The translations under genes and the position numbers were made by a program. Positions 37,973 to 42,013 of a DNA stretch of 45,535 nt are shown one piece after another (position 1 is the stretch's first letter; every line of letters starts with the position of its first letter). The notes under the pieces were generated by a model. That model did not search any database and was not told where the DNA came from. It worked only from the letters and a program-made list of their open reading frames with translations. The stretch lies in the IMG/VR virus record IMGVR_UViG_3300045005_000110; one strand, written 5' to 3'. This DNA comes from a virus.

Positions 37973-38208
37973 TCGCCCTGCCAGCCGGCGATCACGATAA
38001 CCTTCTCGCCCTCGATCTCTTCGCCCTCTTCGTAGAGGTCTTCCGTGAAACACGAGCCGTCGTCCTGTTGGAACGCTATCTCACAACTCGTCGCCACGCC
38101 GCTATAACTCAGATCATCGAATCCGCAGGACGCGATGATCTTCAGGTTGTGGTTGGCCTCGTCCTCGTATAGCTTGTCAACCAGTTCCTTCAACTCGAAC
38201 AGTCTCAT
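37969..38208 (-). CDS. Hypothetical acidic small protein (79 aa)
   Basis: Real start MRLFELKELV… with the strong SD GAGGAGGAAGA-ATG. The track ORF's N-terminus is junk. Confidence 0.5.
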   Translation of the reverse strand: MRLFELKELVDKLYEDEANHNLKIIASCGFDDLSYSGVATSCEIAFQQDDGSCFTEDLYEEGEEIEGEKVIVIAGWQGD

Positions 38209-38472
38209 TCTTCCTCCTCGTAGCCGCCGAGGTCTACGATGTGGCTGGTGCCTACTGGTGGCGTCGGCGGCGTCACCGGGGAGTAGTGGCTGAGTTGGCT
38301 CACGGGGAACCCCATGTCGCAACCCATGATGTAGTAGTACAGGTTGTTGCCGTTCTCTTCCTCGTCAATGGCGACCACCATCGCGAACAGCACGCCGTTG
38401 AGCATGTCGTGTACCCAGTACAGACCCTCTTTTTCCGGCGTCCCCTCGATCCAGTTGATCTCGTTCATGGTC
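38205..38472 (-). CDS. Hypothetical small protein (~89 aa)
   Basis: Start MTMNEINW… with a GGAGAA SD. Confidence 0.45.
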
Positions 38473-38722
38473 ATTTCTCCAGTTCTGCGAGTTCCGCGTC
38501 GGACATTTCCCACTGCCGACACTTGTTCAGTGCGTCTTCCAACTTGTCGCCCGTCCTCGGAGGCGGCGCGGGCATCTCACATTCCGCTTCGATCTCGAAA
38601 TCCGAACGGTTCAGTCTGGCACCGTCGTCCCGGCGAACCACGAACTTGATCATGTTCGGGAACACACCCGTCACCTTAGAAATCATCGACCGGATCTCGT
38701 CTTCTGTATAGATCGTTTTCAT
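38471..38722 (-). CDS. Hypothetical small protein (~83 aa)
   Basis: Start MKTIYTEDEIRS…. Confidence 0.45.
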   Translation of the reverse strand: MKTIYTEDEIRSMISKVTGVFPNMIKFVVRRDDGARLNRSDFEIEAECEMPAPPPRTGDKLEDALNKCRQWEMSDAELAELEK

Positions 38723-39051
38723 AGCCTGATCTCTGCCCTTTCCAGTGCCGCGAACAGTTGATCCGCCAGCCGCTGCTTGTGTTCGGCGTCGAACGCACCA
38801 GCGAAATCGTGCATCTCCCCTAAGTGCAAACACGACTGGAAGAAATTGTAGTCGAACGAGATCCGGCGAATCACCTGATTGGTTTCGGGATCGATCCGGC
38901 AGCCCTCATCCTTGACGCCGCTGATGAAGACGTGGTTCGCAAGGTTTTCTTCTTCTTGCTTGAACCGCTCGGCACGGTAATCTTCCTCGGTTCTGGTCGA
39001 GTTGATGACGGGGATGCCTTTTGCCAGACACTCTGCAACCAAGTCGTGCAT
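38719..39051 (-). CDS. Hypothetical protein (110 aa)
   Basis: GGAG SD before ATG 39051. Confidence 0.5.
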   Translation of the reverse strand: MHDLVAECLAKGIPVINSTRTEEDYRAERFKQEEENLANHVFISGVKDEGCRIDPETNQVIRRISFDYNFFQSCLHLGEMHDFAGAFDAEHKQRLADQLFAALERAEIRL

Positions 39052-39052
39052 G

Positions 39053-40437
39053 TCACTCCGGTGGTAAGTAGCGGTCGGTAACGTTCCGACCGGGTTTCAC
39101 TTTGATGATGCCGTTCTCTGACGGCGGGCCGTCTTTACCGTACTTGATGTACAAGTAAGTAATGTAATCGGCCGCATGGGGCATTCCGTAAAGCGGCGGG
39201 TGCTGACCCATCAAATTCACAATGTCCGGGTACAAACCCAGTTTGGCACCCGAACGCTTCGTGTCCTCGACTATCGTCAGCCATTCTTTGAAGTTCATGA
39301 CGGTATCTAGCCGCCACGCCGCCTCGTCTTGCAAAAAGAAGCCCCCACAATCCTTACACTTGTACGTCGCCGGGTTCGTGTACACTTGTACGTCGCCGGG
39401 TTCGTGTCGCCATAATAGCTGCCGCCGTTCTCGTGCAGACACACCCGCGTCCCGTCGTCTTCCTTCGGACCAAAATCAATGTAGTCCTTCAACTCCCGCG
39501 CCGGGGCCGGACAACCCAACGCCTTCAACGCCGACTCGATCATGTCCTTCCGGTCCAAACCGTCCACGAACTTCGCCGGAATCCCGCCCAACCCCCAATA
39601 CGCCCCCGCAAACTGCCCACACACCGCACCCGTCGTATCCGCGTCCTCACCCAGATTGACGGCGCGAAGTACCGCCTCATCGAAACTGTCCGCGTCGTGG
39701 AACGCCCACAGAGCCGCTTCCAGAGACGCCACCACCCAACCCGACCCACGAACCATGTTCGGCGTCTTGTTCCGGTAACTCCCCTGAATCACGTTCTCGA
39801 TCAACGGGTCGAATTGCTCGGACTTCCTGGCAATCTGAACCGGCTCCCACTCCGGGTCCAACACCGTTTCCCTAGACTCGCCGTTAATAAGGCCAGCCAG
39901 CACCAAGTTCATATAACGACACGCCGACCGACACTGGTCGCTCGCGTGCGTCACCTGACTGGAGTCTGAGGCTTTCTCGGTGAGAGGGCTGACGTGGCCT
40001 TCGGCTAGTAGATCGGCGGTGTGAATCGCAACGGGTGCCAATCGCATGATGCTGCCGTTGCCCGAAGATCCGGGTGCCGGGTCGCCCGACTTCCAGGGAT
40101 CTCCGTCGCGCTCGAAGTTCATCAAGGCGTCACGGGTCGTACACCCGATGTCGAAACAGAACCCGTTCACGCTGTAGCGGCCGTTCTGGAACCAGTCCAA
40201 GTAACGGCTCATCTGGTCCTTCAAATCCCAACCCTTCTCGCCGATGCTGTGCGCCAACGCCAGAGCCATCGACGTGTCGTCGGTCCACTGGCCTTTGGCG
40301 AGGCTGTGCGGCCCGCCCGAACGGTAGGTGGTCACCAACGCAAACGTTCCGGGGGAACGGAACTCGACCGCAGCCCCCAGAGCGTCACCGATTGCGAGGC
40401 CGTACAGACAGCCCCGTTTCCTATCAAGATTGTTCAT
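39053..40437 (-). pseudogene. ADP-ribosylglycohydrolase (ARH/DraG family) gene with a C-terminal extension domain, frameshifted by a 26-bp perfect tandem duplication
   Basis: ORF 39307..40437 carries ARH hallmarks (GCLYGLAIGDALGAAVEF; TDDTSMALALAHSI; GNGSIMRLAPV; GEDADTTGAVCGQFAGAYWG). ORF 39053..39442 continues the same protein: 'TNPATYKC' occurs in both because 'acacttgtacgtcgccgggttcgtgt' is duplicated at 39356–39381 and 39382–39407. Removing one copy restores a single ~452-aa frame. Confidence 0.8.
39356..39407. repeat. Perfect 26-bp tandem duplication (2 copies) inside the ARH gene
   Basis: Direct read: acacttgtacgtcgccgggttcgtgt ×2. Confidence 0.95.
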
Positions 40438-40712
40438 GTGTGATCTTTCCGCTGACGTGATCGAAGTCCCACTTGGGGAGGGACTTCAAGTAATCTTCGC
40501 CGACGACCGTGATTTTCTCAGGGTCCATTTCGAGGTACGGCTGGCCGGGATGTGTTTCGTTGCCGAACTTGAAGTTGACCGGGGCCAGATACCACGCACC
40601 CTCGAACGAGAGAGCGGTCCATTCCTTCCCCTCGATCACCACGTCCCACAACGGGAGGTCGCCTTCGAGGGTCGCCAGATTGAGCCGCTCCACTTGTTCT
40701 TCGGTGATCATT
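40424..40712 (-). CDS. Hypothetical small protein (~96 aa)
   Basis: Real start MITEEQVERLN…. The track ORF's R/E-rich N-terminus is junk. It overlaps the ARH start by 14 bp. Confidence 0.5.
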
Positions 40713-41052
40713 TCTTCTCTCTCTCGTCGGGACCGGCCTTCGGCTTCGGGAACGACGTGACCTCGATCCGGTCGATGCTGCCGAGGTAGCCGTCGAAGTA
40801 GATCTTCACCTTCGGCTGCTCGTTCTCGGTCAGCCACTTCACGAACTCGGTCGTCGTGATTTTCTTCCCGTCGAGCTTGATCTTCGCGCTGCTGATGTTG
40901 TAAACGTCTTTGCTCTTTTCGAGCGTGATCTTGACGAACCACGGGCGGTTGCCGGCCGGCATGAACTGGATCGTCTCCAGAACGCCCTCGACCGGCTTCG
41001 CCTCTTCGCCGGCCCCGACCCCCAACGCCACCGACAGGATCATTGCGAACAT
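40708..41052 (-). CDS. Secreted protein (~114 aa)
   Basis: Start MFAMILSVALGVGAGEEA… (signal peptide-like). The upstream part of the track ORF is junk. Confidence 0.5.
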   Translation of the reverse strand: MFAMILSVALGVGAGEEAKPVEGVLETIQFMPAGNRPWFVKITLEKSKDVYNISSAKIKLDGKKITTTEFVKWLTENEQPKVKIYFDGYLGSIDRIEVTSFPKPKAGPDEREKK

Positions 41053-41234
41053 GGTTTGTCCTCTTCTTCCGCCATCGGGAGTTGACAGTTGCACGCGGGC
41101 CAGCCCCGCATCAACACGACACCCAAACGACAGACGTTGTTGAACGTAGCGAAAACCAAGATCAAGATCAAGAAGAAAAAGAATCCCTGACCCAACGGAC
41201 TCCAGTGCGCGATCATGTCGAGAATCTTGTCCAT
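41040..41234 (-). CDS. Small membrane protein (64 aa)
   Basis: TM segment FFFFLILILVFATF. Confidence 0.4.
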   Translation of the reverse strand: MDKILDMIAHWSPLGQGFFFFLILILVFATFNNVCRLGVVLMRGWPACNCQLPMAEEEDKPCSQ

Positions 41235-41302
41235 TGCGTTCCCACCCGTGGTAAAAGTTCAACGGCAACTAATTATACCAGGGCGGCACAGATAGATATT
41301 GC

Positions 41303-42013
41303 ATGAACGGTTTCCGAGAATTCTTCAACTACCAAGACCTGATCAGCGACCTGGGGGATGCGGGTGCGGAAGACATCGGCGGCATTCACGAGTTCCAGAT
41401 CAACCCCGCCGGCCGCAAGAAAATACTAATCGTCGGCGGCGTTCACGGCGACGAGGAGTCGGGTCCGCGTGGGGTCGTGGCCTACGCACGGGGCAAGCCC
41501 GATCCCAAAAACCACCTGATCTTCATACCCTGCGCGAACGCACACGGGTTCGACAAAGGGGTTCGGACCAACGCCGACCGACGCGACATTAACCGGCACT
41601 TCCACCCCAAAAAGCAAACCAAAGAATCCGAAGCGGTCTGGAAGCGTGTTTTGAAACACGAACCCGATTTCGTCGTCAGTTTGCACGAGGTCGATTACAA
41701 AACCGCCTTCATCTACTGCCAGTCCAGCGGCAAAAAGTGTGACCTCCTGCCGCTGGCGAAAAAACTGGTCGGGGAAATACAGAAGGAGTTCCCGGTCCAC
41801 AAGGGCAAATTGAATGACGGACCCTTCAAGAACCGTTGCAGCGGGAGCAGAAACGGAGTCGTCTCCTGCAAACAGACCTCTCTCGACACGCTCGAAGATC
41901 AACTGCTCAAAGAAGGCATACCGTCGTTGACTACCGAGTTACCTTCGGGAGCAAGCCGCGCCAAGAAAATCGAAGTGACCGTCAAAATGCTCGAAGTAAT
42001 CGGGCAATGGTAA
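41303..42013 (+). CDS. M14-family zinc carboxypeptidase-like protein (MpaA/AstE-like; 236 aa)
   Basis: 'ILIVGGVHGDEESGP' matches the HxxE zinc motif, 'RRDINRHF' matches DLNRNF, and 'VVSLHEVDYK' supplies the third zinc ligand. Confidence 0.7.
   Translation: MNGFREFFNYQDLISDLGDAGAEDIGGIHEFQINPAGRKKILIVGGVHGDEESGPRGVVAYARGKPDPKNHLIFIPCANAHGFDKGVRTNADRRDINRHFHPKKQTKESEAVWKRVLKHEPDFVVSLHEVDYKTAFIYCQSSGKKCDLLPLAKKLVGEIQKEFPVHKGKLNDGPFKNRCSGSRNGVVSCKQTSLDTLEDQLLKEGIPSLTTELPSGASRAKKIEVTVKMLEVIGQW

Follow-up and report, generated by a model that had tools for sequence, protein, structure and literature searches.

An ADP-ribosylglycohydrolase gene with a lost stop codon and a 26-bp tandem duplication beside an independent 81-aa gene in DNA of a probable large phage

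The window analysed in this work is a 45,535-nt stretch of viral DNA (IMG/VR record IMGVR_UViG_3300045005_000110), which carries on its minus strand an ADP-ribosylglycohydrolase (ARH) gene and, overlapping its 3' end, a shorter open reading frame (ORF). We consider it likely that the locus consists of two separate genes of a large phage, and that two mutations, the loss of a stop codon and a frameshifting 26-bp tandem duplication, have altered the 3' end of the ARH gene and left its catalytic domain intact. The first-pass annotation had described an inactivated ARH whose protein was continued in the next ORF. The corrected picture is one of two ordinary genes and two small mutations, and the locus should be annotated neither as a pseudogene nor as a 452-aa fusion. 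Table 1 shows the features of the locus and the evidence for each of them.

Table 1. Features of the ARH locus, in window coordinates
Feature	Position	Strand	Evidence
ARH gene as now read, 376 aa, stop TAG 39307-39309	39307..40437	-	ORF list; PF03747; P0001
ARH catalytic domain, residues 9-288	39574..40413	-	Pfam envelope, motifs, alignment to 2cwc and 6dre
First part of the Cys/His tail, C333-x-H335 ... C352	39382..39441	-	Alignment with P0122, P0123 and P0002; AF2 model of P0002
Perfect tandem duplication, 2 x 26 nt + 1 nt	39355..39407	-	Tandem Repeats Finder and exact comparison
Frameshifted 24-aa Arg-rich tail TRTRRRTSVRIVGASFCKTRRRGG	39310..39381	-	Translations
Former ARH stop codon, now TGG (Trp)	39314..39316	-	Junction sequences, DNA alignment
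15-nt leader of the 81-aa gene, CGGCTAGATACCGTC	39299..39313	-	Same in L007
Independent conserved 81-aa gene, MNFKEWL...LPPE, no assigned function	39053..39298	-	Clone contigs, homologues, dN/dS

The ARH/DraG hallmarks that had been recognized from the letters alone are borne out by profile searches. PF03747 matches with E=5.4e-73 (246.6 bits, with the gathering cut-off at 26.2; the match spans positions 1-286 of the 287-position model) over the residues listed in Table 1, and the phage family PHROG 6572 matches over the full-length domain with E=5e-64. The motifs GDALG (residues 17-21), AVEF (23-26), WTDDTS (51-56) and GEDADTTGA (263-271) are all present, and their columns are invariant across 28 homologues; in ARH structures, GDALG...E, DDT and the C-terminal DxDT provide the metal ligands. 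Residues 3-313 align with the solved ARHs from Thermus (2cwc, 2e-60) and Serratia (Tri1, 6dre, 3e-57), and DraG (2woc, 3g9d) is matched at 1e-27 to 1e-23. The AlphaFold2 (AF2) model of P0002, a relative with an intact tail, consists of helices from residue 1 to residue 306, for the most part at pLDDT >90, and an all-alpha ARH fold is expected for the window protein from this model and from the end-to-end alignment with 2cwc. The gene is under purifying selection (dN/dS 0.07-0.16). Most of the 120 homologues listed are about 305-320 aa long, commonly about 307 aa, and many of the named ones among those listed come from Planctomycetota. The description of the gene as inactivated or truncated could not be sustained: the catalytic domain and all of the motifs lie upstream of the frameshift at codon 344, and natural relatives such as P0121 and P0003 have no such tail. 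With an intact catalytic domain and a tail that most relatives do without, the 376-aa ARH is predicted most likely to remain an active hydrolase. It is probably of the ADP-ribosyl-arginine type, judging from its homology to Tri1 and DraG, which are Arg-specific. The new Arg-rich tail or the loss of a zinc ligand (see below) could destabilize the ARH.

Besides the window ARH, an extra linker and a CxH...CxxC tail beyond the catalytic domain were seen in only a few close relatives. The C-x-H...C-x2-C pattern is conserved in P0122, P0123, P0002 and the single-copy reading of the window, four sequences in all. P0123 (L007, 376 aa) ends in ...CRDCGESFLHGEMVVA, P0122 (L005, 364 aa) in ...CNDCGDCFLKGEMV and P0002 (L006, 352 aa) in ...CDDCGAIFIKG, each followed directly by the stop, so that the ARH stop in these three lies 8-12 residues past the C-x-H...Y-K-C-x-D-C-G motif; the Cys tail is wholly absent from P0121 (L008, 342 aa) and P0003 (335 aa). 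The AF2 model of P0002 shows a disordered linker in this region and then a beta-hairpin at residues 329-349 (pLDDT 56-76), and the sole Pfam match in the tail is zf-Mss51 with E=0.026, below its cut-off. The tail is a presumed zinc knuckle, which may bind zinc. In the window protein, TRTRRRTSVRIVGASFCKTRRRGG stands in place of the ancestral KDCGGFFLQDEAA-stop; the last 12 native residues (KDCGGFFLQDEA A) are displaced, and with them goes the second Cys of CxxC, the fourth presumed zinc ligand. We also considered whether the tail had decayed further after the frameshift, and rejected this: identity is 71-73% in all three pairwise comparisons, including L005 vs L007. Since divergence is equal in all pairs and there is no lineage-specific decay signal, the tail evolves fast everywhere.

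The 26-bp perfect tandem duplication reported at 39356-39407 is real in sequence terms and one base longer than first given: Tandem Repeats Finder places it at 39355-39407, with a period of 26, 2.0 copies, 100% matches and no indels. The duplicated unit on the coding (minus) strand is CACGAACCCGGCGACGTACAAGTGTA, and the duplication begins at ARH codon 344. By direct comparison, identity at period 26 extends over exactly 53 nt, so flanking microhomology is at most 1 nt. In random DNA of 45.5 kb, only about 1e-11 perfect 26-nt tandem duplications would be expected by chance, and no second perfect tandem duplication is present elsewhere in the 45.5-kb window. In a DNA alignment against L005-L008 the 26-bp insertion is private to the window clone, and the diverged relatives have one copy. 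The translations agree with the earlier statement that the duplication shifts the frame and gives the ARH an aberrant C-terminus, and both minus-strand ORFs exist as described, the 376-aa ORF of Table 1 and a 129-aa ORF at 39053-39442, each containing the peptide TNPATYKC. At the junction of the two copies (39378-39385) there is a perfect 8-bp palindrome, GTGTACAC, which does not occur in the single-copy sequence and is probably incidental. When one copy is deleted in silico, a continuous ORF of 452 aa results.

The origin of this 452-aa ORF becomes clear when the gene junctions are compared. The ARH stop codon is TGA in L007, L005 and L008. In L007 the junction reads ...GTC GCG TGA, then CGGCTAGATACCGTC, then ATG AAC TTC; in the window it reads ...GCG GCG TGG, then the same 15 nt, then ATG AAC TTC. 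The leader keeps the reading frame open, with no stop in that frame, and an out-of-frame TAG within it now ends the ARH. The long ORF is thus restored because the stop was lost (TGA to TGG) and because the 15-nt spacer is stop-free and in frame. The leader motif, TAGATACCGTC directly followed by ATG, also precedes the 81-aa homologue in L008 and in L016, a locus that has no ARH. The two-copy ARH terminates at the leader TAG, 8 nt before the ATG of the 81-aa gene. A search for a promoter or terminator between the two genes gave nothing above the shuffled background. A genetic code with TGA read as Trp was considered and rejected, as TGA is the commonest stop among the confident window genes, ends the 81-aa gene and ends the ARH in three relatives. 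A modest general lesson is that, where the spacer is in frame and the stop has decayed, a long ORF that reappears once a duplication is taken out does not prove that there was one ancestral gene.

The downstream ORF was taken in the first-pass annotation as the continuation of the ARH protein. The mechanical 129-aa ORF consists instead of the displaced 12-codon ARH tail, the 15-nt leader and the 81-aa gene, so that only 12 of its codons belong to the ARH and the remainder is a leader and an independent gene. The 81-aa gene is called as such on the clone contigs. Its family comprises 11 clusters of homologues with lengths of 52-81 aa, and eight of these clusters have a length of exactly 81 aa. 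When 1.84 billion representatives were searched exhaustively with a profile, 37 matched, with lengths of 41-184 aa, none of them ARH-sized; the match starts at protein residues 1-4 in 35 of the 37 library representatives, and the protein's own Met is the start in 9 of the 10 aligned members. The gene evolves under purifying selection, with dN/dS of 0.10-0.18. L007 and L008 carry a separate 81-82-aa MNFKEWL gene directly downstream of the ARH, and L005 carries it one gene further on. Separate, conserved ORFs in these three relatives contradict the idea of a single split protein. The homologue also occurs away from any ARH: none was found in the whole fetched DNA of L016 and L017, nor within 2.5 kb of the homologue in L018-L020, which are IMG/VR jumbo-phage contigs of 262-459 kb. 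No fusion of an ARH with the 81-aa protein is present among 5.8 billion proteins. A PDB-sequence profile search for the fold of the 81-aa protein returned only matches with E >0.1, and the AF2 model has a pLDDT of 45.5. The two genes are separate, and the 81-aa protein is predicted to be translated still from its own ATG.

Three clone contigs break inside the 81-aa gene, between 39101 and 39232: L002 and L004 stop at 39101 and 39232, respectively, and L015 begins at 39115. Furthermore, P0133, a 52-aa protein on a 253,983-bp JGI contig, is identical to the C-terminal part of the 81-aa protein, and an identical copy of the neighbouring gene is absent from that contig. The three contig breaks together with P0133 suggest that a second genome in the samples of the clone shares just part of the 81-aa gene.

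Taken together, the two mutations can be placed in a simple scheme. The ancestor would have had an ARH with a short CxH...CxxC tail and, separate from it, an 81-aa gene that was preceded by its own leader and began at its own ATG, much as in L007. Stop loss (TGA to TGG) alone would have allowed read-through via the in-frame leader into the 81-aa gene, with a 452-aa product. The 26-bp duplication at codon 344 would shift the frame, and the two mutations combined would make the ARH end at the leader TAG with 24 Arg-rich residues in place of the last 12, and production of the 81-aa protein would continue from its ATG.

The scheme holds for either order of the two mutations, and the order bears on a further reading, in which the stop was lost first and the duplication was then selected because it restored termination before the ATG of the 81-aa gene. 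The two copies are identical, so the duplication should be younger than about 0.06 neutral substitutions per site (5% level), vs a branch of about 0.2 for the relative nearest to the window (dS 0.41-0.46). In a crude model of the order, which assumes neutrality and takes no account of gene conversion between the copies or of selection on the first one, stop loss first has 5-9 times the likelihood of duplication first, this ratio being multiplied by the tolerance of the read-through allele. We therefore weakly favour, on the age limit and this model, a transient read-through fusion that came first and a duplication that then re-separated the genes. That the duplication was selected for doing so is a tentative suggestion, which we hold to be possible but on the whole doubtful. 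The new stop 8 nt upstream of the ATG resembles the ancestral two-gene layout, and a collapse of the duplication to one copy would bring the fusion back, a possible reason for the presence of an unstable repeat in all assemblies. On the other hand, the intermediate with TGG and one copy is found nowhere among 5.8 billion proteins and 22 IMG/VR ARH loci, a back-mutation from TGG to TGA would be the more obvious rescue, and harm from the fusion is without evidence. In its fuller form, the duplication would be a selected rescue that recruited the leader TAG after stop loss, and the population might also toggle between fused and unfused states; this we regard as rather unlikely. A stop loss combined with a frameshifting duplication is nevertheless a tidy candidate for compensatory evolution at a gene boundary, seen here in one clone.

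Toggling as such, i.e., a reversible on/off or fused/unfused switch in which slippage or recombination would take the population from one copy to two and back, was one of the three possibilities raised by the first-pass annotation. Perfect tandem duplications are intrinsically unstable, and the protein output would indeed differ between the one-copy and two-copy states. The copy number in the available DNA points the other way. In the consensus assemblies, each of the seven fetched clone loci spanning the site has exactly two copies; they come from JGI samples 3300045004, 3300045010 and 3300045421 and from Logan assemblies of SRR35359074 and SRR35364242, the SRR35359074 Logan contig having been seen in five samples, and two assembly pipelines are involved in total. 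The fetched clone loci are 100% identical to the window wherever they could be compared, and as such they are repeated sightings of one evolutionary event, independent at the level of sample and assembler. The 376-aa product, which is only possible with two copies, is on record as P0001 from eight contigs, and the single-copy product is absent from the record (5.8 billion proteins searched). Exact DNA scans for the tail sequence in a viral and a metagenome contig collection, and for the 81-aa gene in the latter, gave no match, evidently because these collections do not include the samples of the clone. Relatives have no repeat at the site, and a lone duplication of 26 nt with no repeat tract does not resemble the known contingency loci. 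We consider such a switch very improbable.

It has also been proposed that an ARH of 452 aa with a C-terminal extension of about 110 aa was split by a fresh slippage event into a truncated ARH and an orphan fragment, leaving a pseudogene. The proposal drew on the uninterrupted 452-aa ORF of the single-copy version and on the TNPATYKC peptide present in both ORFs. It is at odds with the missing fusion, both among the 5.8 billion proteins and in the exhaustive profile search, with the stop, leader and ATG that L005, L007 and L008 carry between the two genes, with the own Met in 9 of 10 aligned members of the 81-aa family, and with the complete catalytic domain, and we judge it to be highly unlikely, if anything a little more so than the switch. 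If the stop was lost first, the immediate ancestor did encode a 452-aa read-through product, and the word 'split' would be literally true of that transient state. The remaining proposal, an assembly or sequencing artefact over a true single-copy genome, is extremely unlikely and was not borne out, because the identical two-copy junction was recovered in all seven spanning loci from several samples by both the JGI and the Logan pipelines, and moreover the 52-bp array is shorter than a read, its 26-nt unit should be resolved at k=31, and the duplication never coincides with a contig break; the duplication is real DNA.

The phage-like nature of the element, as first suggested, is supported by the wider context. 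The window is rich in small orphan ORFs, and PHROG matches include endonuclease VII, an Srd-like anti-sigma factor/sigma-70 decoy, HNH endonucleases, an ATPase and a tRNA nucleotidyltransferase. Clone contigs reach 125.8 kb, and relatives of the genes are found on jumbo-phage contigs; the element is best read as a large (jumbo-type) phage. Viral contigs commonly carry ARHs, with 22 IMG/VR loci, many of them on contigs of 100-530 kb. A distant blastn search of window 38000-41500 against phage genome records gave no match. Single window ORFs of at least 100 aa match GmrSD_N (3.4e-12) and, in PADLOC, NsnA (2.2e-11), AbiEi and PD-T4-2_A; together with the Srd, sigma-70 decoy and endonuclease VII matches these are phage genes of the defence/counter-defence type.

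Other genes and repeats in the window and its relatives deserve a brief description. The small genes 3' of the ARH are shuffled in a cassette-like manner (L005 4113-4640; L006 3857-4093; window 38205-38468, minus strand). In L005 the ARH and the 81-aa gene are separated by an additional Cys-rich gene of 175 aa. In L006 the 81-, 110- and 83-aa genes are skipped, and the first gene after the ARH is a homologue of the 87-aa gene of the window (64% identity, E=4e-33). On the 5' side, a 95-aa orphan ORF (window 40424-40711, minus strand) overlaps the ARH start codon by 14 nt, and conserved counterparts of 95 aa in L007 and 94 aa in L008 lie at the equivalent place. Neither Pfam nor PHROG gave a match for this ORF, which might be a partner gene whose translation is coupled to that of the ARH. 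A divergent gene on the opposite strand (41303-42013, plus strand), some 870 bp upstream of the ARH start and beyond three small genes, encodes a protein of 236 aa that carries the succinylglutamate desuccinylase/aspartoacylase catalytic domain AstE_AspA_cat. Farther away, a 516-aa PolyA_pol/tRNA nucleotidyltransferase (13877-15427, plus strand) and a 225-aa protein with the HAD_SAK_1 'Swiss Army Knife RNA repair' domain (15872-16549, plus strand) look like an RNA-repair cluster (13877-16549, plus strand), and the related locus L016 carries a phage-type RNA ligase. In a 679-aa ORF (7217-9256, plus strand) the shoulder domain of the Major Vault Protein (PF11978, E=6.7e-21) is found along with a weakly matching Vault_3 repeat, which is unusual in a phage; the opposite strand there has a 798-aa ORF (7187-9583) without matches. 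Tandem arrays of longer period lie at window 1-544 (273-bp period, 2.0 copies, 87% identity) and at 1436-2314 (252-bp period, 3.5 copies, 78% identity), the latter overlapping candidate ORFs on both strands.

The ARH of the window can be compared with several known systems. With the PF03747/PHROG 6572 family it shares the full-length domain and the conserved motifs, to which it adds a linker of about 45 aa and the CxH...CxxC tail, half-destroyed here. Tri1 (6dre/6drh), the Thermus protein 2cwc and DraG belong to the same fold family and show strong sequence similarity to it. Serratia Tri1 is an ARH-type immunity protein against the ADP-ribosyltransferase toxin Tre1. The alignment covers Tri1 residues 68-363, and its first 67 residues, which form the toxin-binding extension, are without counterpart in the window ARH. 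The first-pass annotation had proposed searching the neighbours for ADP-ribosyltransferases (ARTs); this was done with Pfam, PHROGs and PADLOC, and none was found in the 149 window ORFs of at least 100 aa and the small neighbours. Likewise no nif/draT gene or cognate ART gene was found near the ARH. With the extension and an adjacent Tre1-like ART both absent, the window ARH does not appear to be a Tri1-like immunity protein.

A functional parallel may be AdfN, an ADP-ribose eraser of the NADAR family in T4-like phages that acts in counter-defence against DarTG1 (PMC11825919). By analogy with AdfN, the window ARH may reverse ADP-ribosylation by host toxins or defence systems, a reasonable parallel to which the window, with no ART among the ORFs scanned, lends no direct support. 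The two share the concept of an orphan ADP-ribose remover on a lytic phage, and they differ in fold and substrate, AdfN having a NADAR fold and a DNA substrate vs the ARH fold here. They also share a comparable natural frameshift at the 3' end: the adfN gene of phage RB69 carries a natural single-nucleotide insertion that leads to an early stop and to loss of a C-terminal helix needed for full activity (PMC11825919). RB69 AdfN thus loses a helix relevant to activity, whereas the catalytic domain of the window ARH is untouched.
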